A stretch of DNA of 60,605 nt, filler included, from a candidate division TA06 bacterium SM23_40 (GTDB lineage Bacteria; LJUI01; SM1-40): the NCBI GenBank assembly GCA_001303705.1. It is 7 parts of 7 records of this genome, joined end to end, with 100 filler letters (N's around TTAATTAATTAA, not from the genome) between each part and the next. Parts side by side here need not be neighbours in the genome. Positions count along the whole stretch, not along the records: positions 1 to 20,485 come from LJUI01000029.1; 6 more parts are not named here. The stretch is one strand, 5' to 3'. The position numbers and the translations under genes are program-made. Positions 7,167 to 54,830 of the stretch are shown here, in pieces. The notes beneath the pieces were generated by a model. It had not been told where the DNA came from. It was given only the letters and a program-made list of their open reading frames with translations, and made no database searches. Every line of letters starts with the position of its first letter. Within the stretch, counting starts at the first letter, position 1.

Positions 7167-7216
7167 GGAGGTAGATGACCTATACTGCTACAGGAAGGCT
7201 TCACAGGGGGATTCCC

Positions 7217-8557
7217 ATGCATCTCGACCTCATCGCACTCGCAGTCGTCGCAGCCGCGGTCTCCGTCGGCCCCGCCTTCAGCCAGACCCTCGGAATAGAG
7301 GAATACAGGCTCGATAATGGCCTGACGATCCTGGTGCGCGAGGATCATTCCTCGCCGGTCGTCTCCGTTCAGGTCTGGTACCGCGTGGGGTCTCGGAACG
7401 ACAGGAGCGGGACAACCGGCATCTCCCATTTCCTCGAACACATGATGTTCGAAGGAACAGAACGATACGGTCCAGGGGAGATCGAACGCATCGTCAGACG
7501 GAATGGCGGGGAGAAGAACGCATTCACCTCGCGCGACTACACAGCATACTATGAAAACCTGGCGAGCGATCGCTATGAGATCGCCATCGAACTCGAAGCC
7601 GATCGCATGCGAAATCTGGTACTCGATCCTGAGCGGATCTCCCGTGAGCGGGGTGCCGTGTCCGAGGAGCGACGGCTGCGCGATAACTCGCGGACTGGCA
7701 GGCTATACGAGGAGCTTATCGCTGCTGCCTATGTCGCCCATCCCTATCAGTGGCCCATACTCGGGTGGATGTCGGACATTGAATCGATTAGCCGCGAGGA
7801 TCTCCTCCACCACTATCGCACATACTACGCTCCCAACAATGCGATCGTGGTCATCATAGGTGATGTCTCCCCTGAGGAGGCATATCGCAAAGTCAAACGC
7901 TATTTCGGGAAGATCCCGCCAGGTGAAGAGCCGCCTCAGGTGAGGACCAGAGAGCCGCATCAGAAGGGAGAACGTCGCGTCGAGGTACGCAAACAGGCCG
8001 AGACGCCCTACGTTCTGGTGGCCTTCCATGCTCCCGAGATCGGGCATCCTGACCAGTACGTCCTGGATGTCATCAGCGAAATCATCTCCACAGGCAGAAG
8101 CTCGCGACTGTACCGATCCCTCGTCCGGGAGCGGGAGATCGCACTCTCAGCCTGGGGCGGGTACGAGGCCCGCACCGACCCGTCGCTCTTCTATTGCGGC
8201 GGGACGCCAAGAGCCGGGCACACGACCGACGAACTCGAGGAAGGTATCTATTCCGAACTCAAACATCTCATAGAGGAACCGGTATCGGACCGGGAGCTCA
8301 CAAAAGCGATCAATCAGATCGAAGCCCGACTCATCTTCAGCCTCGACCGGAATTTCTACCTCGGGGTACAGATCGGACGAAGCGCGACAATGCTCTCCCA
8401 TCACTACCTCGAGGACCTTGTCGCGAGGATCAGGGCTGTGACGGCTGAAGACATCATGCGGGTAGCTGGCGAGCACTTTGTGCCCGAAAACCGGACCGTC
8501 GCAATCCTCATCCCTGAGGGAAAGACGTCGGACCGCCTTCGCCAGCCCACGTACTGA
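7217..8557 (+). CDS. M16B zinc peptidase, catalytic subunit, exported
   Basis: Inverted zincin HFLEH; LDNGL, NAFTSRDYT, EERR; N-terminal signal peptide (alternative start 7175). Confidence 0.93.
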   Translation: MHLDLIALAVVAAAVSVGPAFSQTLGIEEYRLDNGLTILVREDHSSPVVSVQVWYRVGSRNDRSGTTGISHFLEHMMFEGTERYGPGEIERIVRRNGGEKNAFTSRDYTAYYENLASDRYEIAIELEADRMRNLVLDPERISRERGAVSEERRLRDNSRTGRLYEELIAAAYVAHPYQWPILGWMSDIESISREDLLHHYRTYYAPNNAIVVIIGDVSPEEAYRKVKRYFGKIPPGEEPPQVRTREPHQKGERRVEVRKQAETPYVLVAFHAPEIGHPDQYVLDVISEIISTGRSSRLYRSLVREREIALSAWGGYEARTDPSLFYCGGTPRAGHTTDELEEGIYSELKHLIEEPVSDRELTKAINQIEARLIFSLDRNFYLGVQIGRSATMLSHHYLEDLVARIRAVTAEDIMRVAGEHFVPENRTVAILIPEGKTSDRLRQPTY

Positions 8558-8682: not shown

Positions 8683-10077
8683 ATGCACCGATCGCTGATC
8701 GCCATAACGCTACTGTTGACGACACTGATCACAGTCAGCCCAGTCCAATCTGCTGCGGAGAAGACCGAAATGGCACTCCCAACTCCACACCGCCACGTAT
8801 TCGAGAACGGCCTTGCCGTCCTGACGGTCGAACGCCACCAACTCCCTATCGTCGAGTTGAGGGCCATGATCCGCGCCGGCGTGCGGCAGGAGGTGGATGA
8901 CGAGGCGGGCCTGGCTAACCTCGTGGCACGGCTCCTCGTCCACGGCACCCGTGAGCGCTCGGCAATCGAGATCGCCGAAGCCATCGACTATGTAGGCGGG
9001 CGGCTCGACACGTATGCCTCGGATGATGCCTCCTACGTATCTATCTCTGTCCTGTCGCGGGATCTCCTGCTCGGGCTCGACCTCCTGTGTGAGCTCCTGA
9101 CGGCGCCGACATTTCCTGAGGAGGAACTCGAACGAGAGCGCGGTCTCGTCCTTACTGAGATGGCGCAGCGCAAGGATGATCCGCGGACAGTCGTGGGAGA
9201 TGCATTCCGCGAGGCAGTGTTCGAGGACCACCCCTACCATCGACCTGTCACCGGATATGAGGAGACAGTCACATCTCTGACACGCGAGGCAATTCTCTCG
9301 TTCTATGAGCGTTTCTATCGTCCCAACAATTGTGCGATCGCCGCCGTGGGCGACTTCGATCCTGACAACCTGATTGAGGAATTGGGTAAGCGGCTCGAGA
9401 CGTGGGAACGACGTGACGTGCCCGCTGTGGAGCCGAAGACCCCCAGGCCCATCAAGAAGTCCGAGCTCAAGCTCATCGATATGGACATCTCCCAGTCTTA
9501 TGCCCGGTTCGGCCACCACGGCATCAAACGCAATCACCCCGACTACTATGCGATATCCGTCATGAATCGGATTCTGGGGGCTGTCGGATCCGGACGGATC
9601 TTCAGAGAGGTGAGAGAGGAACGGGGGTTGGCGTACGATGCGCGCGCCAGATTCCCGAGCCTTCTCGACCTCGGCACCTTCTATGCCTCGTTCGAGACGA
9701 AAATCGAGAGCACACAAGAGGCGCTCGACGTCACCCTCGACCAGATTCGCAGAATGAAGACACGAGGCGTGACCAGCGAAGAACTGGCAGATGCGAAGAG
9801 CTACTTGACAGGCCACTTCCCGCTTACGTTCGAGACCGGAAGACAGCTCGCTGCGATCCTGCTTGATATCCAACTCTTCGATTTGGGCCCTGAGTACCTT
9901 GCTGAATATCTGGATACTATCGAGTCAGTCACCAAGAAAGACATCAAACGTGTCGCCCAGCAGTATCTCGATCCGGAAAAGATGATCTTCGTCGTGGTCA
10001 CCAGGCTGGAAGATCTCTCGCTCGACGTGCCGGGCATCGAGCAACCGGAGCAACAAACGGAGAAAGATATGCACTAG
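8683..10077 (+). CDS. M16B peptidase, non-catalytic partner subunit, exported
   Basis: M16 fold (ENGL, GLANL, HPY, FYRPNN) with no HXXEH; carries the R/Y pair VREERGLAY; signal peptide. Confidence 0.9.
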   Translation: MHRSLIAITLLLTTLITVSPVQSAAEKTEMALPTPHRHVFENGLAVLTVERHQLPIVELRAMIRAGVRQEVDDEAGLANLVARLLVHGTRERSAIEIAEAIDYVGGRLDTYASDDASYVSISVLSRDLLLGLDLLCELLTAPTFPEEELERERGLVLTEMAQRKDDPRTVVGDAFREAVFEDHPYHRPVTGYEETVTSLTREAILSFYERFYRPNNCAIAAVGDFDPDNLIEELGKRLETWERRDVPAVEPKTPRPIKKSELKLIDMDISQSYARFGHHGIKRNHPDYYAISVMNRILGAVGSGRIFREVREERGLAYDARARFPSLLDLGTFYASFETKIESTQEALDVTLDQIRRMKTRGVTSEELADAKSYLTGHFPLTFETGRQLAAILLDIQLFDLGPEYLAEYLDTIESVTKKDIKRVAQQYLDPEKMIFVVVTRLEDLSLDVPGIEQPEQQTEKDMH

Positions 10078-10165
10078 GCGGCAGCTCCCCGGGCGAAAGA
10101 CCCGCAAGGGCGGCCCGCCGCAGGTACGGTCAGCGCAGTCCTGCCGCCAGAGCGCCGAACGACGC

Positions 10166-10194
10166 TTGACGCCGCCTGCCGATCGGTGTATAAT
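10166..10194 (+). promoter_or_regulatory. Near-consensus sigma70 promoter for the leader ORF plus TonB-dependent receptor
   Basis: TTGACG (10166-10171), 17-bp spacer, TATAAT (10189-10194). Confidence 0.8.
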
Positions 10195-10295
10195 GGCAAT
10201 GAGGACGCCCCTCGTCCTGGCTCGAATCCCTGTGAGGGATGCTATTCTGCTCGAGTCTCGCGGCATTTCGGAAATCGAAGAAGGAACGTAACTCA

Positions 10296-10850
10296 ATGGT
10301 GAGACGCGCCATAAACCGCCCCGCCGGCTCGGGGTTCTCGGCCCCGCGCCTCTTCCTGCTCGCCTTCCTGGTGGTGAGCTGCGCGTCGTATCCGGCGGCC
10401 GCGACTTCTGGCTGTGGTCTGTCCACACCGCACGCCGATCTGGAACCGACGGATGGAGAGAGTGGCCCGTCCTATGGCGCCAGGGGCGGAGTTGATGTGC
10501 ATACTTCGTGCTGCTCAATATCGCGACACGGAATACCTCGGGAATCGTCCCCACGGGCGGACCACGAGACTGTGAGCTGCGGGTGTGGCTGCTCCGATTT
10601 TGAGATATCGTGTCCGTGGGTCAACACGTCATCCTCTGCCGGTGTCGTTCTCTGCACCCACCCGTGTCCCTGCGCCGGCCAGCATTCCCAGGGCGTGTTA
10701 TCTTCCCCCCGGCTTCCCACGGGCCTTACACCATCCCTCCATACCTTCATCCGCACGCCTCACTACGAGAACCTAGCTACCCTATGCTTCATCAGGACCT
10801 CACAGCACACCCCTGCTGTTTTGCATGGCCCCCCTAGAGAATCCCGATAA
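10296..10850 (+). CDS. Cys/His-rich exported leader protein with C-terminal HGPP motif; putative CruR/DUF2946-like regulatory uORF
   Basis: AAGGA RBS then ATG 10296; 184 aa; hydrophobic LFLLAFLVVSC; 12 Cys and 10 His (CC, CGCGC, CTHPCPC); ends VLHGPPRESR; lies between a strong promoter and a copper-type TBDT. Confidence 0.7.
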   Translation: MVRRAINRPAGSGFSAPRLFLLAFLVVSCASYPAAATSGCGLSTPHADLEPTDGESGPSYGARGGVDVHTSCCSISRHGIPRESSPRADHETVSCGCGCSDFEISCPWVNTSSSAGVVLCTHPCPCAGQHSQGVLSSPRLPTGLTPSLHTFIRTPHYENLATLCFIRTSQHTPAVLHGPPRESR

Positions 10851-11066
10851 TCCACGGAACTGGAAGAGCATCGTTGCGCGATAGCCCGTCCAATGCCCGG
10901 CCAGGCTTTGGTCCAACGATACCCGTGCGATTCAAGCTCGCTTTCCTGTGCGCAGCCGATGCGCTCCACGGCGCAAACGGTTGCCAGACAAGTTGCCAGC
11001 GGCGCGCCATAGCTCTGCGGCACAGACGATCCCGCGCCTGGCGCGTACTTCGGAAGGATAGACGCG

Positions 11067-13130
11067 ATGAAATACTTATCGATGATTCCCATGGCTCTCC
11101 TGCTCCTGGGTGGCGCCCTGTACCCCGCTGTCGCTCAGGAGGAAGAGGAGGAGCTGCCGATCTATACGATCGAAGAGCTCGTCGTAGTGGGCGAGCGCCT
11201 GGAACCAGGGATGAACCTGGAGGTGTCACAGCAAGAAGTCGCAGCGAGGGCCACGCGCGATGTGGGAGCTCTCTTCAGGACCATACCCCAGGCAGGAGCA
11301 ATCCGCCGCGGTGGTACAGGTCTGGATCCTGTGGTTCGCGGCTTCCGGGGCGAGCAGTTGACGATCCTCGTCGACGGTGCGGCACAGGCGTGGGCAGCAT
11401 GTCCGAACCGCATGGATCCGCCGACGATGCACATCGAGCCCGAGGATCTACAGAAGATCGAGCTCTTCCCGGGACCGTACACCGTGCGCTTCGGCTCGTC
11501 AGTCGGCGGCGTCGTCAATCTCGTCATGACGAGGCCGCCGCGGGTCTCGCACGCCGTGGTCCATGGCACTGTCACCTCCGGGTACGAGAGTGCCTACGAG
11601 GGACGCCGCATCCGTGGAGAGCTCTCGGCGAACTGGCCCTGGGGGGATCTGACGCTGACCGGCGCAGCCAAGGATTATCGGAATTACGAAGATGGGCGCG
11701 GTGACGAGGTCAGTGCGGCCTTCCGCACGAACAGCTACTCGGTGAAGCTCGGGGCGTCTCCCACATCGAACCAGCGCATCCAATTTTCGCACCGGCAGTC
11801 ATTCGCAAGGGATATGGCCTATCCGGCACTGCCCATGGACGCGAGAAAAGACGACACGCAATTCTATGCGCTCGACTACCGGCTGCACCGCCGCGCCCCA
11901 TACAACATGACGCTGACAACAAGGCTCTGGGCCAGCCTTGTCGACCACGTCATGGACAATTCCCTGAAGCCCAACGCAACAATGGTCACCGCCGTCACCG
12001 ATGCCCACACACGCGCCAGGGGAGGTCGGGCAGAAGGCCAGGTGATGCTAAAGGGCGGCCACCGCCTCTATATTGGTGCCGACTACTCCAGGCACTTCCA
12101 GAAGGGGTTCCGGACGAGGGACTTCCTCATGGGGCCGATGGCCGGCACAACGCTCTTCGACATCGTCTGGCCAGATGCGGAGATGGAGACCATAGGGGGG
12201 TTCGGAGAGCTTCGATGGACGCTCTCTCCCACCCTCCTGGCAACGGTGGGCGCACGAGTCGACAGAGCCACGGGCAGAGCGGATAACCCGGAGGCCGCGT
12301 TCGAAGCTCTCTATCCGGAAGATCTCGAGCGAACCGATGTGGTACCCTCCGGCCAGGTCGGACTGAGCTGGCAGGCTACCCCTCATCTGGAGCTTTCCAC
12401 CAAGGTAGGGACAGGCGCGAGGGTACCGAGCGTCGAGGAGCTGTACATCTATTTGCTGCCGGTCGGGCTAGACCCGTATGACTACCTCGGCGATCCGACC
12501 CTCGAGCCGGAACGCAACATACAGGGAGAAGTGCGCGGAGCCATCGAGCTCGCACCGGCGCGCATCGAGGCGACTCTCTTCCACAGCCGGGTCAGCGATT
12601 ACGTATCCGCCCGCATCGATACTACGGTCACCTCTCGGTCACCGGGAGCGCTGGGGGTGAAGCGCTTCACCTCGATATCGACAGCAACCATCTCCGGGGG
12701 ACACCTCAGGGCGGCGCTCGACCTCGGTCGGGGATTCGAGCTTTCAGGCAGCGTGGCCGCCAGCCTGGGTCGGGACGAAGATGCGGACGAAGACCTCCCG
12801 GAGATGGCGCCGCCGGAGGCGAGAATGTCGCTCTGCTATTGCACCCCCGGGGAACTCTTCCGCGGAGAGGTCGAGGGACGCTTCGTTGCAAAGCAGGACC
12901 GGATATCCGAGAGCTTCGGCGAGACGGAGACGGCAGGATTTGGGGTGTGCAACGCCCGCGCCTGGCTGAACCTCGGTTCCCATGTGACGCTCAGAGCAGG
13001 TGTAGATAATCTGTTCGATCACTACTACCGTGAACACTTGAATCGAAATCACAAAGTTGATGGCTCGTCCATTGCCGAGCCCGGACGCAGTCTTTCGGTT
13101 GAGTTGACAGCTGGACTGGGCACGCGGTGA
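11067..13130 (+). CDS. TonB-dependent copper receptor, OprC/NosA family
   Basis: Signal peptide, TonB-box-like EELVVVG, plug DPVVRG, copper-site motifs CPNRMDPP (CxxxM, 11400-11414) and DHVMDN (HxM), C-terminal GVDNLFD...YREHL...EPGRS. Confidence 0.9.
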   Translation: MKYLSMIPMALLLLGGALYPAVAQEEEEELPIYTIEELVVVGERLEPGMNLEVSQQEVAARATRDVGALFRTIPQAGAIRRGGTGLDPVVRGFRGEQLTILVDGAAQAWAACPNRMDPPTMHIEPEDLQKIELFPGPYTVRFGSSVGGVVNLVMTRPPRVSHAVVHGTVTSGYESAYEGRRIRGELSANWPWGDLTLTGAAKDYRNYEDGRGDEVSAAFRTNSYSVKLGASPTSNQRIQFSHRQSFARDMAYPALPMDARKDDTQFYALDYRLHRRAPYNMTLTTRLWASLVDHVMDNSLKPNATMVTAVTDAHTRARGGRAEGQVMLKGGHRLYIGADYSRHFQKGFRTRDFLMGPMAGTTLFDIVWPDAEMETIGGFGELRWTLSPTLLATVGARVDRATGRADNPEAAFEALYPEDLERTDVVPSGQVGLSWQATPHLELSTKVGTGARVPSVEELYIYLLPVGLDPYDYLGDPTLEPERNIQGEVRGAIELAPARIEATLFHSRVSDYVSARIDTTVTSRSPGALGVKRFTSISTATISGGHLRAALDLGRGFELSGSVAASLGRDEDADEDLPEMAPPEARMSLCYCTPGELFRGEVEGRFVAKQDRISESFGETETAGFGVCNARAWLNLGSHVTLRAGVDNLFDHYYREHLNRNHKVDGSSIAEPGRSLSVELTAGLGTR

Positions 13131-13301: not shown

Positions 13302-13838
13302 TCATGTGCCCGAGGCCTCTTCGGGCCACTTCTTGGCCATCTCCTGTATCGCCGCCATGGCGGCCCCGTACTGCCGCTTCTCCACAAGCGCCGTAACGAG
13401 TTTCACATGACGGATCCGCTCGGATCGGTCGCTATCGCCGCTCAACTCATCGAGATCGAAGACCTTCACGCCCGAGCCGAGTGCCTCGCCCGGACTGCTC
13501 CCCGAGTCGGGTACGATCCCAATGCCACTAGGCCCGGCCGCCTCGTCCGATGTTGGCGACGTCGGCTCAGCTTCACCAGCCTCTGGTGCTGGGCCCGCGC
13601 CCCGCTGCTCTCCCTCCGCTGCGCCATCGGTGTGCGTCGCAGACTCAATATGCTCTGTCTCCCCCGCCATGACCCTGCCGTAGTGCGTGATATCGAGGTT
13701 GTTATTCGCGCCCTGCGTGCTGCCCTCTTGCTTCTTCCTTTCGTCCTCGGCGGGCTCTTCCGGCTTCAGGAGCCGCTCCAGGGGCGAACGTTCGCGCTTC
13801 TCAGCATGCAGCTCCTTGAGCCGCTCGGTGATGTCCAT
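13302..13838 (-). CDS. Hypothetical protein: helical ends around an acidic disordered linker
   Basis: Starts 5 bp after the upstream TPR gene on the same strand; E/G/S/P-rich middle; TPR-like final helix pair. Confidence 0.7.
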   Translation of the reverse strand: MDITERLKELHAEKRERSPLERLLKPEEPAEDERKKQEGSTQGANNNLDITHYGRVMAGETEHIESATHTDGAAEGEQRGAGPAPEAGEAEPTSPTSDEAAGPSGIGIVPDSGSSPGEALGSGVKVFDLDELSGDSDRSERIRHVKLVTALVEKRQYGAAMAAIQEMAKKWPEEASGT

Positions 13839-13843
13839 CGTTT

Positions 13844-15325
13844 CTACCTTTCGCCTGCCATATGCGGATATGCCGCGAGCAATGCCCGCAGCTCATCATT
13901 GCCCGGATCTATCTGCTGTGCGCGCTTCCAGGCGACCACAGCCTCCTCATCCCTCTCCAGCTGACGGAGGGCCTTCCCCAGATTGAAATAGGCGGTGGCG
14001 TAGTTCGTGCGCCTGCCCAACGCCTCCTGAAAGTGCTTCACCGCCTCCTCATACTCTCCCTTTTCATAGAACGCCAGGCCGAGGTTGTTCACCGCCTCAG
14101 CGAACTCAGGCTCGAGTTCGAGTGCGCGGCGAAAAGCGAGAATCGCCTCATCCGACCGGCCCAGCTCGCTCATCACCAGCCCGAGGTTATTGTAGGCCTC
14201 GGCGGAGTCCGGGTTCAATTCCAGCGCCTGGGTGAGCTCGAGGCGCGCAGCATCGAACGCACCGCGATAGAAGAGCGCTACCGCCCGATCGTTATGGCGA
14301 CGAGCACCAGCAAGACGTTCCCGCTCCTCTTCCTCTTCGCGGCGTTTCCGTTCTCCTTCGAGGAACTCGAATACCTGACGGTTCGATTCGCCGATCCCAT
14401 CGACGAGCTTCACGAGTCGCGTCGATCTCTCACGGTCGAGACGGACTATTTCACTCAGGGCCTGCTCAAGCTCGCCAAGCTTCCCCTCGATTGCTCTGCT
14501 CACCTCGAGCGTCTTCTCCGCATATCCCTCGAATGAGCTAACGAGACGATCCTCCAGCGCCTTGTACGCTCGGGCGAGATCCGTCAACTTCTCGACGATC
14601 TCAGATTGCTGACGCCCGACTGACGCCAGTTGCTCGACTGCCTCCTTCTGATGTGCACTCGACTGTCGCTGCTCATTCGCTATCTCGGCAAGGCGCTCGG
14701 CATTCTCGGCATCGCACTTGGCCGACCTGTCGCTATTCATCGTCTCTATCTTGAGGAGTGCATCGAGCCTCCCTGCAAGCTCCTTGCCCGATGTCTCTAT
14801 CGAGCCGGCGATCGCCGGGAGTTCCTTGCCCATCGTCTCTATCGAGCCGGCAATCGTCTCGCTCTGCTCCTTGAGCTCCTGAACGAATGCGGCGACCTCC
14901 TGCTGGCGCGTGGCCCCTTCGGCCGCTGCGCGTGAGAGCGCCTCCAGCTTCTCTCCCAGCCCTTCCTTGCCGGCGACCGCCTCCTTCAGCTCTCCAGTAG
15001 CACGCGTCCCGACCTCAATACTTTTCTCGATCCGACCGGCCCCCGCCTTGGCCTCATCGGCCATCTGACCAAGGGCTTTTGTCACGCCCTCCCATTCGCG
15101 ATGAAGCTCGCTCGCCATATCTTTTAGCAGAGGACCGATCTCTCCGAGCTTCGCAGCGCCGCTCTCTTTGCGCGCACTCTTCGCCTCATGGAGGATGTGC
15201 ACGAGGGCGGCAAGGGCACACCGCTTTTCTCCCTTGTCGTACAGCTCACATGCTTCCCGCCGACACTCTATGAATCGCTTCTCCTCAGGCGATTCACGAT
15301 CGAAGACAAACGGACATTGCTTCAT
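13844..15325 (-). CDS. Coiled-coil/TPR protein with N-terminal four-Cys motif
   Basis: CPF-x14-C-x4-C-x9-C, long heptad region, about four C-terminal TPRs (AEAYNNLG, AEAVNNLG, ATAYFNLG). Confidence 0.85.
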   Translation of the reverse strand: MKQCPFVFDRESPEEKRFIECRREACELYDKGEKRCALAALVHILHEAKSARKESGAAKLGEIGPLLKDMASELHREWEGVTKALGQMADEAKAGAGRIEKSIEVGTRATGELKEAVAGKEGLGEKLEALSRAAAEGATRQQEVAAFVQELKEQSETIAGSIETMGKELPAIAGSIETSGKELAGRLDALLKIETMNSDRSAKCDAENAERLAEIANEQRQSSAHQKEAVEQLASVGRQQSEIVEKLTDLARAYKALEDRLVSSFEGYAEKTLEVSRAIEGKLGELEQALSEIVRLDRERSTRLVKLVDGIGESNRQVFEFLEGERKRREEEEERERLAGARRHNDRAVALFYRGAFDAARLELTQALELNPDSAEAYNNLGLVMSELGRSDEAILAFRRALELEPEFAEAVNNLGLAFYEKGEYEEAVKHFQEALGRRTNYATAYFNLGKALRQLERDEEAVVAWKRAQQIDPGNDELRALLAAYPHMAGER

Positions 15326-15357: not shown

Positions 15358-18300
15358 TCATGAAACGGTCTGTTCGGTCACATGGCTCGCCGGTACCGGA
15401 GCCCGACCTCCGCGAATGATCCCCTCCAGTACTTTCCCGCGTCCCTCCAACTCATCCGCAACCAGCCGCGTATACGCGCGCTCCAACCGCCTCTTGGCGT
15501 CCCGATACGGCACGCCACCCTCCATCAACCGGCCGAGAGCCGCAACCGTCCCCAGTCGATCGCCCATCTTCTCGCACGCAAGCGCAAGCTGATGGAAGAC
15601 CTCACGGGATGTCTCATCGGCCTCCCTACCCTCTGCGCCATCGCCTACATCTGTTGCCATCAGCACCTCGGCCGCCCCGCAGTAATAATGTCGTTCCATG
15701 AGGCATCGCGCCACCTCACAGGCACGCATTCGCTCGAGACGGCCCGTGCGGCCGCGGAACATGAGAAGCTGCTCGGCTTCGTCGAGCCGGCCGGCCCCGC
15801 GGAGCTGCCGTGCCGCCACTATCCTCAACTCCTCGCTCTCCGGATCGGCCTCGAGTCGCCTCATCGTTCGCTCAAGCTCCAACTGCACGCTCCTCGTGTG
15901 GAGGCGCTCGAATTCGCGACATACTGCGTTCTGATCCGATGCCTCCTGCGCGGCCTGTTGAGCCTCCTTCCTCGCTTCTTCGAGGCTACCGAGGCGGTAC
16001 AACGAATGGCTCAACCCAAGGTGAATCCGCGCTCGTAGATCACGATCCTGCTCTGCGTCCAGAACCGGAGCGAGAACATCGCGCGCACTCTCAACCTCTC
16101 CCCTCGCGAGCAGCAGATCACCAAGCGCATAGCTCGCATCCGTCTGGGTCGCATCGAGGCGGATTATCCGCCGCAGACGATCCATCACCACTTCCACCGC
16201 TGTCTCATCGCGTTCGGCAAGCTCGGCGAGTCTGGCAGTGGCCGTCTCCAGATCGCCCTTTTCGATCAGCATCGATGTAAGGGCGTCGAGAACGACAGGC
16301 AACTTCCCGGACTGCTCAGCCATCTCCGCAAGTCTCTCGACGACGGATCCGAGTTCATCCGGATCGAGTTCCACGATCCTGACCGAATGCCGCACCGCCT
16401 TCTGGAACTCCCCATCCTGCACGTATGCCTGCACCAGCGCATGGTGACACGGAACACTCGATTCCTGCGCCGAAAGGATCTTCTCCAACGCGCTGATCCT
16501 ACGATCTCGGGAGCGAGGGTCCATTTCCCCCGTCTCTTGAAGTATCTCTACCGCCTGGTTGAAGTTCCCCCGCGCCACATGGCAATCTGCAAGCCTGAAT
16601 CTCGCATCAACATTCCTCGGGGATCTCTCTATGATCCGGTGCAGCTCGCGCACGACGGTCTCGTGCAGCCCGGAATCGAGCGCCAGCGCCTTTGACAGTA
16701 TCGGAACAGCCTGGCCATCATATCCTTTCTTGATCTGTGCCCTCCCCAGGGCGAGCAGGAGACGCGCCTCCTCGCCTCTATCCTGAATGATGCTGTTGAT
16801 TCGCGCAATGACCCGATCGACATACGCCTCGTCGATCTCCATGGCCTGTTCCAGGTCGGCCACCGCCTCCTCTGCTCGATCGAGAGACGAGAGAACAACA
16901 CCCCGCGCATAGTGAGCGTCGGCGCTCGCCGGGTCGACGCCGATCAGAGTCGACAATTCCTCGACGACCCGAGTCCTCCTATCAGGAGCGATCTTCCCGA
17001 TCGTCATGAACTCCTCGACAGCGTGCGGTACATCCCCCGCGACACCGTAGATCTTCCCCAGCACGTAGTGCGCCGGAATATTATGCTTGTCGATCTCGAG
17101 CACCTTCCTGAGGATGCCTGTCGCCTCATCTGCCAGTGAACGATCCAACTGGACCGCTCCGAGGATCGGCCCTCCGGATTGGGAGAGATTCCCACGCTCC
17201 GCCATGCCCTCGCCAAGTCGGAGGTGGAAGTAGGCGCTCTCTTCCTCAGGCACCACATCGAGAGCCCGCTTCGCCTCCTGGATCACTTGATCGAACAGAC
17301 CCCGATCCCGATAGGCATCGACCAGGGCCTTCCGTATTGCGATGTTCTTCTCGTCGGCCTCGAGGATAGTCTGGAGGCGCGCGACGACCTGATCGAACCT
17401 GTGCGGGTCACTGGCCAGAACCATTTCGTAGTGGCCTGCGGCCTCCTGCACATTCCCCGCTTCCAGGAGAAGCTCCGCCAGTCCCATCTGGGCGTCGACC
17501 GCTTTCGGATTGCGCGCCAGAACGCGCTCATAGGCACCGATCACCTCTTCTGTCTGTCCGGGATCGATGCGGTGGCAGCGCAGGAGTTCCTCCATCATCT
17601 CGGCGTACTTCCCCGCCATCCCGTACGTCTCCCCCAGGGCGAGGGTCGCCAGGAATTCATCCGCACCGAGGTCGCGCACGCGCTCATAGAGGGCGATCAC
17701 CCGGGGCAGGCTCTTCTCCTCGGTTCGGGCTAAGAGATCGATGTGCGGGAGTATCGATGTCACCCGTTTCGGTGCGTCCTCTGCGGCCTCGGCGAGAAGC
17801 TCGATCGCGCGAGCCCAGTCGCCGGTTCGCCGCAGAATACCTGCCAGGCATACCTTCACCTGCCATTCCTTGCCGGCCTGCTCGTATACCCGCTCGATGC
17901 CGGCCTTCGCCCTTTCCAATCCCTCCTCACCGCAATCCGCCTGATGCTCAAAGACTGCGATTGCGCGTTCGATCTCCCCCTTGTCACTAAAGATCCGCCC
18001 AACGAGATCGAGAGTCTCCACGTCATCCGTCCTCGCCTCGAGCACACGATAGAGTCGCGGTACGATCTCCTGGGCCATCCCGCGGTCTGCCTCATATGCC
18101 ATCTTGAGATACTGCGCTGCCTCAGCGAACTCGCCGCTGTCCAAAAGGGCATCTACCAGATAACTGAGTGTGAGACTGTGCGCAGGATCACGCTCGAAGA
18201 CCGCACGATATCGATCGAGCACCTCGGCCTTCGATCCGGGAGCGACCTCCAGAACGCGCGAGTACTCGCTGAGCGCCGTCTCGATCTGCCCCTTGCTCAG

Positions 18301-19245
18301 ATATGCGTCGCCGAGCGACAGAAAGACGTTCACCTGACTCGCGTCCAGGCGCACGATCTCCCGATAGGACTTGATCGCATCATCGGTACTGATCGTCCCC
18401 GCGTCGAGTGACTCAGCAACCAGGCGTGTCGCATCCTGGAACCGACCGCCGGCAACATAGAACTCGAGGAGCGCTTTGAGGGATTCAGCTGATGCAGGTC
18501 CGATTGCCTCCAGCGCATTCGTCGCCTGCTCAAGAGCGGCCCGATCGAATTCGACGGCCTTCCTGAATTCACGCACAGCCGACGAAGCCTGGCCGGACTG
18601 CGCGTACAAATCTCCCAGCACCAGACACGGCCGATGGTCGCCATAGTTTGCCCGTGCGATCTCGTGGCATTCGACTATTACCGGTTGGATCTCCTCTGGC
18701 GATATCTCTACGACATCGCGGAAGAGGCCGAATGCCGTTTCGAGATCCTTCTTCTCCACAGCGAGAAGCGCCAGGCAGTAGTGTACGATCAGATCCTTCG
18801 TCCTCTTCTCCCGATCGCCCTTGTACTTGCTGATATTCTCGTGCATCTGCCGATAGCGACTTTCGAGCGGTTCCATATCCTGGGGATCGAGTGCGCGGAG
18901 CGTACGGTGGGCGTTCTCGAAGTCCCGCCGGCCGATGTATGTCTCAAGGAGAAACTCACCGGTCTCGGGAGGTTGCTCACCTCGGTAGTGCAGGTCCTCG
19001 ACGACGCCGAGCAGGAGTTCGAGCTGGTGAGGGTCAGCGGCTGCGGCGCGCTTGAAGACCGAGGCGGCCTCTTTCCTCTGCCCGTTCTCGAAGTACACAC
19101 TTCCCAGTTCGGCAAGCAGAGCGAAATGCTCCCCTTTCTTCAGCTCCTTCTCAAGAAGACGAATGGCGCGGTCGTACTTCCCCTCTACCCGGTGCTTCCT
19201 CGCTCGATCGATCGCGCCCTCTCCTCCGAATATGGGAAAAGCCAC
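15358..19245 (-). CDS. Giant tetratricopeptide repeat protein (1295 aa)
   Basis: AGGAGGA RBS and GTG start; TPR consensus recurs throughout (LGDLY, LGDAY, LAELL, LGKIY, LGRAQ); no signal peptide or TM helix seen. Confidence 0.9.
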   Translation of the reverse strand: MAFPIFGGEGAIDRARKHRVEGKYDRAIRLLEKELKKGEHFALLAELGSVYFENGQRKEAASVFKRAAAADPHQLELLLGVVEDLHYRGEQPPETGEFLLETYIGRRDFENAHRTLRALDPQDMEPLESRYRQMHENISKYKGDREKRTKDLIVHYCLALLAVEKKDLETAFGLFRDVVEISPEEIQPVIVECHEIARANYGDHRPCLVLGDLYAQSGQASSAVREFRKAVEFDRAALEQATNALEAIGPASAESLKALLEFYVAGGRFQDATRLVAESLDAGTISTDDAIKSYREIVRLDASQVNVFLSLGDAYLSKGQIETALSEYSRVLEVAPGSKAEVLDRYRAVFERDPAHSLTLSYLVDALLDSGEFAEAAQYLKMAYEADRGMAQEIVPRLYRVLEARTDDVETLDLVGRIFSDKGEIERAIAVFEHQADCGEEGLERAKAGIERVYEQAGKEWQVKVCLAGILRRTGDWARAIELLAEAAEDAPKRVTSILPHIDLLARTEEKSLPRVIALYERVRDLGADEFLATLALGETYGMAGKYAEMMEELLRCHRIDPGQTEEVIGAYERVLARNPKAVDAQMGLAELLLEAGNVQEAAGHYEMVLASDPHRFDQVVARLQTILEADEKNIAIRKALVDAYRDRGLFDQVIQEAKRALDVVPEEESAYFHLRLGEGMAERGNLSQSGGPILGAVQLDRSLADEATGILRKVLEIDKHNIPAHYVLGKIYGVAGDVPHAVEEFMTIGKIAPDRRTRVVEELSTLIGVDPASADAHYARGVVLSSLDRAEEAVADLEQAMEIDEAYVDRVIARINSIIQDRGEEARLLLALGRAQIKKGYDGQAVPILSKALALDSGLHETVVRELHRIIERSPRNVDARFRLADCHVARGNFNQAVEILQETGEMDPRSRDRRISALEKILSAQESSVPCHHALVQAYVQDGEFQKAVRHSVRIVELDPDELGSVVERLAEMAEQSGKLPVVLDALTSMLIEKGDLETATARLAELAERDETAVEVVMDRLRRIIRLDATQTDASYALGDLLLARGEVESARDVLAPVLDAEQDRDLRARIHLGLSHSLYRLGSLEEARKEAQQAAQEASDQNAVCREFERLHTRSVQLELERTMRRLEADPESEELRIVAARQLRGAGRLDEAEQLLMFRGRTGRLERMRACEVARCLMERHYYCGAAEVLMATDVGDGAEGREADETSREVFHQLALACEKMGDRLGTVAALGRLMEGGVPYRDAKRRLERAYTRLVADELEGRGKVLEGIIRGGRAPVPASHVTEQTVS

Positions 19246-20485: not shown

Positions 20486-20585
20486 NNNNNNNNNNNNNNN
20501 NNNNNNNNNNNNNNNNNNNNNNNNNNNNNTTAATTAATTAANNNNNNNNNNNNNNNNNNNNNNNNNNNNNNNNNNNNNNNNNNNN
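20486..20585. other. Artificial contig linker
   Basis: 100-bp N run with central TTAATTAATTAA (stops in six frames). Confidence 0.98.
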
Positions 20586-27699: not shown

Positions 27700-27799
27700 N
27701 NNNNNNNNNNNNNNNNNNNNNNNNNNNNNNNNNNNNNNNNNNNTTAATTAATTAANNNNNNNNNNNNNNNNNNNNNNNNNNNNNNNNNNNNNNNNNNNN
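27700..27799. other. Artificial contig linker
   Basis: N run with TTAATTAATTAA. Confidence 0.98.
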
Positions 27800-33796: not shown

Positions 33797-33896
33797 NNNN
33801 NNNNNNNNNNNNNNNNNNNNNNNNNNNNNNNNNNNNNNNNTTAATTAATTAANNNNNNNNNNNNNNNNNNNNNNNNNNNNNNNNNNNNNNNNNNNN
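33797..33896. other. Artificial contig linker
   Basis: N run with TTAATTAATTAA. Confidence 0.98.
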
Positions 33897-42810: not shown

Positions 42811-42910
42811 NNNNNNNNNNNNNNNNNNNNNNNNNNNNNNNNNNNNNNNNNNNNTTAATTAATTAANNNNNNNNNNNNNNNNNNNNNNNNNNNNNNNNNN
42901 NNNNNNNNNN
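42811..42910. other. Artificial contig linker
   Basis: N run with TTAATTAATTAA. Confidence 0.98.
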
Positions 42911-48774: not shown

Positions 48775-48874
48775 NNNNNNNNNNNNNNNNNNNNNNNNNN
48801 NNNNNNNNNNNNNNNNNNTTAATTAATTAANNNNNNNNNNNNNNNNNNNNNNNNNNNNNNNNNNNNNNNNNNNN
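48775..48874. other. Artificial contig linker
   Basis: N run with TTAATTAATTAA. Confidence 0.98.
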
Positions 48875-54730: not shown

Positions 54731-54830
54731 NNNNNNNNNNNNNNNNNNNNNNNNNNNNNNNNNNNNNNNNNNNNTTAATTAATTAANNNNNNNNNNNNNN
54801 NNNNNNNNNNNNNNNNNNNNNNNNNNNNNN
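54731..54830. other. Artificial contig linker
   Basis: N run with TTAATTAATTAA. Confidence 0.98.

Follow-up and report, generated by a model that had tools for sequence, protein, structure and literature searches.

An HGPP-ending, cysteine-rich open reading frame as a candidate metal-sensing ribosome-arrest leader for an OprC-type receptor gene in a candidate-phylum bacterium

The DNA considered here is a stretch of 60,605 nucleotides (nt), called the window throughout and always at its full length, from the metagenome-assembled genome of candidate division TA06 bacterium SM23_40, a 2.88 Mb assembly with 60% G+C and 89.8% completeness that is the sole member of its phylum in the genome set we searched. 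Our subject is a compact unit in which a putative promoter, a cysteine- and histidine-rich open reading frame (ORF) that we call the leader, a spacer, and the gene for an OprC-type TonB-dependent receptor follow one another on one strand. Seven contigs are chained in the window, and only positions 1-20485 are contiguous with this unit. Two genes for M16 peptidases lie upstream, and the 990 nt that separate them from the receptor gene are taken up by the promoter, the leader ORF, the spacer and the receptor's Shine-Dalgarno (SD) sequence. The features on which the argument depends are the following.

10166-10194, + strand: putative sigma-70-type promoter, TTGACG-17-TATAAT, agreeing with 11 of 12 consensus positions
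10281-10286, + strand: SD-like AAGGAA of the leader ORF, 10 nt 5' of the ATG at 10296, found by reading the sequence
10296-10850, + strand: leader ORF (P0001), 184 amino acids (aa), Cys/His-rich, ending HGPPRESR-stop; from translation and homologues
10296-10406, + strand: probable Sec signal peptide, residues 1-37, with an Arg-rich start, a hydrophobic core L19-V27 and an AxA-type site, AAA/T
10578-10616, + strand: first conserved Cys cluster, CxCGCS (residues 95-100) with C106-P107, invariant in 4/4 family members
10662-10685, + strand: second conserved Cys cluster, PCPCxGxH (residues 123-130), invariant in 4/4
10794-10838, + strand: candidate arrest segment R.SQ..P...HGPPR, residues 167-181, with the HGPP codons at 10824-10835
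10654-10861, + strand: C-rich, G-poor mRNA, a candidate Rho utilization (rut) region for Rho loading, covered by 78-nt windows starting at 10654-10784
10851-11066, + strand: spacer between leader and receptor, 216 nt
11033-11045: perfect 13-nt palindrome CGCGCCTGGCGCG, 6 nt before the receptor SD and present once in the window
11052-11058, + strand: GGAAGGA, the receptor SD, eight bases 5' of the receptor ATG at 11067
11067-13130, + strand: OprC-type TonB-dependent receptor, 687 aa, with Plug and barrel domains

An initial annotation of this DNA had described the promoter, an ORF of 184 aa with 12 Cys, 10 His, the strings CC, CGCGC and CTHPCPC and an HGPP four residues before the stop, and a 216-bp spacer leading to a receptor with the OprC ligand motifs CxxxM and HxM; it had taken the arrangement for a divergent analogue of the copper-responsive CruR leader of Bordetella. 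This layout is borne out in every part, with the promoter at 10166-10194, the ORF recovered by translation, and all four receptor ligands aligned to those of OprC. The twelve Cys are residues 29, 40, 73, 74, 95, 97, 99, 106, 120, 124, 126 and 162, and HGPP occupies residues 177-180, leaving RESR before the stop codon. Between 9800 and 13400 the promoter is the only promoter-like site on the + strand, and the two strands of that interval together hold two such sites versus 0.8 +/- 0.9 in shuffled sequences. A longer reading of 203 aa from an ATG at 10239 is available as an alternative; the start at 10296 is the position common to the database protein and to all three homologues described below.

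The leader protein matches no model in Pfam or NCBIfam. Annotation pipelines call it hypothetical and family models miss it, much as the initial annotation had anticipated. Its homologues, together with the pattern of strain variation, nonetheless indicate that it is a real gene. Contigs from two estuary metagenomes carry strain variants of the locus in which 14 leader codons are changed, eight of the 14 synonymously versus 26% expected (P = 0.015). None of these changes falls on an invariant residue of the family, and the codon for P180 is altered synonymously (CCT>CCG). Over the leader and spacer (10329-10932) the variants depart from the window 12 times across 309 nt and 17 times across 148 nt, whereas over the receptor (11105-13130) the counts are 0 across 494 nt and 8 across 1,018 nt.

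Two homologues, P0002 (187 aa, E 6.7e-21) and P0003 (181 aa, E 6.6e-13), were found with phmmer among 1.84 billion representative proteins, and a profile search of 5.8 billion proteins added a third, P0004 (188 aa). The family thus comprises four cluster representatives of 181-188 aa, with no others in those protein libraries, and in a four-way alignment the homologues are 29-38% identical to the window's leader. Searches with the single protein and with the profile in the phylum and in a set of 61 'relative' genomes, of which the 60 others are related to the host at the domain level only, returned noise (E at least 0.016), and a scan of the genome collection with the leader profile gave 126 pattern matches, none of which was confirmed. 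Among small ORFs of the host genome that end in [RH][AGSD]PP, chance frames dominate and no second candidate was found.

What the four proteins share is concentrated in a few places. Invariant in all of them are C40, C95-x-C97-G-C99-S100, C106-P107 and P123-C-P-C-x-G-x-H130, and then, near the end, R167, S169, Q170, P173 and H177-G-P-P-R181. The last 15 aligned residues (167-181), nine of which are invariant, form the best-conserved stretch of the protein. The interval from the PCPC cluster to HGPP is free of gaps in all four members and measures exactly 50 residues from C126 to H177, and HGPP lies 1-4 residues from the stop, two of the homologues ending directly at HGPPR. Given homologues at the E-values above and HGPPR invariant in 4/4, the ORF is, by sequence comparison, more than a chance frame. 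The initial annotation had pointed to relatives as a check, and there the upstream ORF is conserved, the Cys clusters and the xGPP ending being the parts retained in all four. Its remark that there is no true CxxC applies to the window's protein, which has CGLS directly behind the signal peptide; it does not extend to the family, since three of the four members carry CxxC at that place. As a whole, the pattern of Cys clusters, fixed spacing and HGPPR tail fits what sequence conservation would look like in a sensor joined to an arrest peptide.

The signal peptide was called by inspecting the four-way alignment, in which the small-residue cleavage motif is kept in 4/4 members; AlphaFold2 places a helix at residues 16-30. 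A lipoprotein reading was considered on account of a lipobox-like VVSC at residues 26-29, and was set aside in favor of a signal peptidase I site as the motif is not conserved in the homologues. The leader protein is predicted to be unstructured (mean predicted local distance difference test score, pLDDT, of 39 in AlphaFold2 and 0.34 in the ESM Atlas). The ESM Atlas gave no feature match, and its structure matches, obtained with a poor model, all fell below a template modeling (TM) score of 0.5.

The tail of the leader is a sequence with a record of its own. Selections from random libraries in E. coli recovered RxPP and HGPP as elongation stallers (Tanner 2009; Woolstenhulme 2013; PMC7897499, PMC10951233, PMC12992588), HGPP is described as under-represented in bacterial proteomes (same sources), and HGPP is listed among the motifs of upstream ORFs that cluster with RAPP arrest peptides (PMC10987492). 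The initial annotation's reading of HGPP as an arrest-type motif is supported, HGPP being a documented staller. In the host genome the motif counts, which are small numbers, run in the same direction, with 3 HGPP versus 7.7 expected and 10 RGPP versus 24.1 expected.

The gene downstream encodes a receptor with Plug (PF07715, E 4.7e-13) and barrel (PF00593, E 4.4e-32) domains. Among 22 models it scores best with TIGR01778 (TonB-copper), at 239.3 bits, which is below the cut-off of 472.45. Among solved structures, its best relative is OprC of P. aeruginosa (6FOK, E 3.7e-42), with an alignment that spans residues 15-675. The principal copper site of OprC is reported to consist of C143, M147, H323 and M325 (Bhamidimarri et al. 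2021; PMC8610252), and the receptor's CxxxM (C112, M116) and HxM (H294, M296) fall on exactly these residues. All four positions are invariant in 24/24 aligned receptor homologues. The receptor is thus like OprC in keeping every ligand of the principal copper site, and unlike it in that the overall similarity is distant and below the TIGR01778 cut-off. Copper is taken to be the metal because of the receptor's four ligand residues and of these alone.

The closest receptor homologue, P0006, is 80% identical. P0006 and the leader homologue P0002 come from Logan contigs of equal longest size, 16,211, and the pairing of leader and receptor has probably been kept even as identity between the leaders fell to about 38-40%. 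A metagenome scan with the receptor yielded one locus, L012, whose receptor is 29% identical and which has no leader-like ORF.

The closest precedent for such an arrangement is CruR (Bp2923) of Bordetella pertussis, the prototype of DUF2946/PF11162 (Roy et al. 2022; PMC9426467). CruR has an export signal, a CXXC motif 45 +/- 2 residues before RAPP, and RAPP three residues from its end; the Rho-loading site was mapped to a 'bubble' of C>G within cruR, the spacer is 162 nt long, the protein is predicted to be unstructured, and a TonB-dependent receptor gene lies downstream, with OprC-type receptors among the neighbors of CruR homologues. The leader of the window resembles CruR in its N-terminal export signal, in its C-terminal xxPP arrest-type motif 3-4 residues from the stop, in a C>G stretch inside the ORF, in the unstructured prediction, and in being the first gene of a unit in which a copper-related gene comes next, after a long spacer (162 nt for CruR, 216 nt in the window). 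The distance between a Cys motif and the arrest-type motif is fixed within each family, at about 45-50 residues across the two. By contrast, the tail of the window's leader is HGPP rather than RAPP, its sensor would be formed by CxCGC and PCPC clusters rather than by a single CxxC, the distance from Cys to arrest motif is 50 residues with a different Cys motif, the protein has 184 aa versus about 145, and the host belongs to a candidate phylum and not to the Proteobacteria. The CxxC that three of the four family members do possess sits directly behind the signal peptide, which is not where CruR has it.

None of the four family members matches PF11162 or any other Pfam model at E values up to 10, and a six-frame PF11162 search of the genome gave only a chance match of 14.8 bits in a transposase frame on another contig. 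The 61 genomes hold two marginal DUF2946 matches, and non-membership is judged here by sequence-versus-profile search. The leader is not a detectable DUF2946 member; it is CruR-like in architecture, and what we claim by analogy is likeness of working, not membership. The wording 'divergent analogue' in the initial annotation was apt, since the search with hidden Markov models finds no DUF2946 membership.

At the level of RNA, the last third of the leader ORF is an extreme C-rich, G-poor stretch that ends just beyond the HGPP codons. Windows of 78 nt across 10654-10861 contain 36-49% C and 12-23% G, with C/G ratios up to 3.8, and the best 234-nt window has a C/G of 2.41, a value reached by 0.09% of 48,730 windows of the genome. 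By analogy with cruR (PMC9426467), this stretch may serve as a rut site. Rho itself is encoded in the host genome (706 bits, above the cut-off).

Neither an intrinsic terminator nor a second promoter lies in the spacer at 10851-11066, which also lacks significant structure, and the fold of 10780-11090, which spans the 3' part of the leader and the spacer, is unremarkable (z = -1.23). Pairing between the receptor start region and the leader mRNA reaches -20.5 kcal/mol versus -20.6 +/- 2.0 in shuffles, 46% of which do as well; no hairpin that would mask the start site over the receptor's ribosome-binding site was found. Searches for inverted repeats and operators around the promoter and in the spacer returned nothing besides the 13-nt palindrome, which might act as a pause hairpin or as a site for a protein. 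Scanning 9900-11300 with Rfam for riboswitches gave only a chance match (E 0.53).

We propose, with a probability of about 0.6, that the leader controls the OprC-type receptor gene in cis, as a ribosome-arrest leader that senses metal, and we infer arrest, the identity of the metal, the sign of regulation and a role of Rho by analogy with the known systems. The promoter at 10166-10194 would drive leader and receptor as a single transcript. A ribosome translating the leader would stall at HGPP, holding Pro179 in the P site while Pro180-tRNA occupies the A site, as the analogy with RAPP suggests, and CxCGCS and PCPCxGxH would by then have emerged from the exit tunnel; because the nearer cluster precedes the stall site by 50 residues, it would sit just outside the tunnel. 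At low supply of the thiophilic metal, which is most likely Cu(I), 10654-10861 would be covered by the stalled ribosome and by others queuing upstream of it, Rho would be kept off, and RNA polymerase would then continue through the 216-nt spacer into the receptor gene. Metal captured by the nascent Cys clusters would release the stall, the ribosome would terminate at 10848-10850, and Rho could then load and stop transcription ahead of the receptor, such that the importer is switched off when metal is plentiful. The Rho step is the more tentative portion of this scheme, and we would give it somewhat less than an even chance.

Several observations weigh against this proposal. The conservation on which it draws rests on four sequences, two of which (P0002 and P0004) are close to each other, and the linkage of P0002 with P0006 is read solely from the equal figure for their contigs. 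R181, which follows the putative stall site, is invariant and is unexplained by arrest at Pro180; its codon (10836-10838) is AGA, the rarest Arg codon of the genome (9%). The need for copper is likewise unexplained, as no cuproenzyme family was found: six-frame searches of the 89.8%-complete genome found no COX1/heme-copper oxidase, no NosZ of either type, no multicopper oxidase and no cupredoxin, and the TIGR04244 control matched nowhere. The codon score of the leader is -0.146 per codon, compared with 0.27 +/- 0.10 for long ORFs, whose 1st percentile is 0.003, and its G+C content at codon position 2 is 0.62, an atypical composition that we ascribe to the Cys/Pro/Ser-rich protein. The C-rich stretch may in turn be a mere by-product of a protein sequence rich in Pro, Ser, Thr, His and Leu. 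Low confidence in the structure models is weak evidence of disorder, since they rest on the same four sequences, and an exported Cys-rich protein could have a stand-alone role. A single RNA contig of 217 nt was found; it lies inside the receptor and is possibly DNA carry-over, and the lack of coverage over the leader in the same run carries no information.

The stand-alone role deserves the most attention among the alternatives, and we consider it unlikely but worth serious thought. Here the ORF would encode a working periplasmic or membrane-anchored thiol-rich metal binder, such as a metallothionein-like buffer or a chaperone that accepts Cu(I) from the receptor, with no regulatory task, and HGPPR would be kept for some other reason. 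The signal-peptide-like N-terminus is what such a protein would need, its twelve Cys and the conserved CxCGC and PCPC clusters are typical of Cu(I)/thiolate sites, it has its own SD, its 184 aa exceed the 150-aa limit used for CutF-like leaders (see below), and an Arg conserved past the stall point is no difficulty for it. However, conservation peaks not in a Cys cluster but in the closing 15 aligned residues, which have a known staller at their end, and the spacing from Cys cluster to tail is fixed in a protein that is predicted to be unstructured. Furthermore, a leader that is about 38-40% identical beside a receptor that is 80% identical is unusual for a partner protein. The roles of metal binder and leader may not be mutually exclusive. 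By comparison, it is scarcely credible that the ORF stays open by chance in non-coding DNA of high GC content and that the 990-nt gap holds something else. The low codon score and the overlapping ORFs in other frames are what such a frame would show, yet homologues with E-values of 6.7e-21 and 6.6e-13 that share the conserved motifs come close to refuting it, synonymous changes are enriched in the strain variants, and Rfam offers nothing for the interval apart from the chance match.

Two further alternatives accept that the leader stalls ribosomes and differ in what the stall does. CutF-like proteins are a rule-defined set of 5,334 proteins shorter than 150 aa, 19-40% of them from Bacteroidota; TonB-like proteins are the second most frequent neighbors, and most spacers are below 100 nt (Ozturk et al. 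2023; PMC9973294). In a CutF-like switch, co-translational export and periplasmic metal binding would modulate the stall, and the stalled ribosome would melt a hairpin over the receptor's ribosome-binding site, giving translational control with no part for Rho. Like the members of this set, the leader is probably exported, has a Cys/His metal motif and carries PP no more than 15 residues from its C-terminus (at 179-180 of 184), and a metal-homeostasis gene follows on the same strand at a distance below 1000 nt. Signal peptide, PP tail and neighbor agree with three of the four sequence and context filters of that study; the CxxC behind the signal peptide in three members would be the first part to reach the periplasm. 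Its length, and that of the whole family, is above the limit, and membership is not claimed. Unlike CutF, the locus shows no hairpin masking the downstream start site, with start-region pairing no better than in shuffles and an unremarkable fold, and its spacer of 216 nt is longer than most. The gene downstream encodes an importer, for which the expected sign is opposite; expression enhanced by stalling at high metal would be the wrong way round. We regard a CutF-like mode as quite unlikely. It is very improbable, in our judgment, that the leader is a monitoring substrate in the sense of SecM, VemP or ApdA/ApdP, in which the pull of export releases the stall and what the switch reports is the capacity for export rather than metal. 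Sec/YidC monitoring substrates are indeed described as having for their signature an export signal at the N-terminus together with a RAPP-like motif at the C-terminus (PMC10987492, PMC12992588). The leader also resembles RAPP-like arrest peptides (SecM RAGP, ApdA/ApdP RAPP, ApcA RAPG) in its basic-small-Pro-Pro motif placed at the C-terminus after a conserved tunnel segment, and in being an exported protein encoded upstream of a gene that would be the regulated one. It differs from them in having His for Arg, and its arrest is argued by analogy only; the gene downstream encodes a metal receptor and not sec, yidC or another export component, and the invariant Cys clusters would be left with no role.

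Returning to the proposed metal-sensing leader, we examined whether related receptors in other phyla are preceded by comparable ORFs. A scan with the receptor profile, using one genome per species, gave 80 loci (L015-L094), nearly all from Bacteroidota, Balneolota, Kryptoniota, Ignavibacteria and their relatives, and 73 were usable after seven with less than 600 nt of upstream sequence were dropped. The receptors of these phyla, the nearest relatives of the window's receptor, carry an extra N-terminal CarboxypepD_reg domain that it lacks. A same-strand ORF of at least 80 aa that ends no more than 450 nt before the receptor is present at 67 of the 73 loci. At 56 of the 73 such an ORF bears Cys and has [HRKQ]PP in its last 25 residues, compared with 10 of 774 control ORFs of that size from the same loci. 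The tails are HPP (21 loci), RPP (19), KPP (11) and QPP (5), mostly located 2-8 residues from the stop codon (two loci have 13 and 17), and three further loci have shorter or more distant versions. These leaders are 120-197 aa long, mostly 120-154, end 40-440 nt upstream of the receptor, and combine a hydrophobic N-terminus with LCxNKDKPxLxCNGKCYL or other Cys clusters; the example from Kryptoniota (L020) pairs CGCGC-type clusters with IFHPP. Representative leaders are located as follows.

L020, 2256-2627: [HRKQ]PP leader from Kryptoniota
L015, 2070-2489: [HRKQ]PP leader
L060, 2273-2635: [HRKQ]PP leader

None of 13 such leaders tested matches Pfam or NCBIfam, and local hhalign comparison with the window's family showed no relationship at the profile level (probabilities of 1.2% and 0.3%). 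They have the same position and design as the window's leader, and differ from it in being shorter, in their Cys motif and in having no Gly or Ala between the basic residue and PP. They are probably already within the published CutF-like list (PMC9973294), because they fit the CutF-like rules and because of the Bacteroidota share and the common TonB-like neighbors that the same report describes.

That most related receptors of the Bacteroidota-allied phyla have an [HRKQ]PP leader suggests that control by an arrest leader might be the rule for this receptor clade. One can go further and speculate that non-proteobacterial receptors of the OprC clade are generally gated by arrest leaders of several independent origins, each joining a Cys sensor of its own to a stall site of the basic-(Gly)-Pro-Pro type (CxCGC/PCPC clusters with HGPP in this candidate phylum, LCxN..CxGxC with [HRKQ]PP in Bacteroidota and allies), and that the leader of the window would be a multi-site poly-thiolate sensor. 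We give this broader conjecture little credence at present. If it were true, several Cys clusters might bind more than one Cu(I) co-translationally and release the stall in a graded or cooperative manner; such a sensing logic would be new, and more than that of a diverged CruR.

To our knowledge, no post-transcriptional copper switches besides CruR and CutF have been described, and both have been studied in Proteobacteria only. The locus described here would realize the same design in a candidate phylum from unrelated sequence, with HGPP in place of RAPP and clustered Cys in place of CxxC. Switches of the CruR/CutF kind are already published, and so is the presence of HGPP-type upstream ORFs among RAPP-like arrest peptides (PMC10987492). 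What is new is a sequence family whose stall motif and sensor are not those of the known switches, from a lineage that has no studied relatives, and a literature search returned no description of a non-DUF2946 HGPP leader ahead of an OprC-type receptor. The locus offers a natural test of whether HGPP, known from random-library selections and sequence clustering, can act as a regulated arrest site, and of which features of such a switch are essential, the spacing of the sensor or the C-rich Rho-loading stretch.

The remaining features of the window are as follows, the peptidase genes having been assigned by domain search.

7175-8557: M16 peptidase gene, upstream of the leader
8683-10077: M16 peptidase gene, upstream of the leader
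20486-20585, 27700-27799, 33797-33896, 42811-42910, 48775-48874 and 54731-54830: paired runs of N that join the seven contigs

Downstream of the receptor, three ORFs on the - strand are unrelated to the leader-receptor unit. The first (13302-13838) encodes an acidic protein of 178 aa with a good codon score and no Pfam match, the second (13844-15325) encodes a 493-aa protein with coiled-coil and tetratricopeptide repeat (TPR) character, and the third (15358-19245) is an ORF of 1,295 aa that appears TPR-like by eye.

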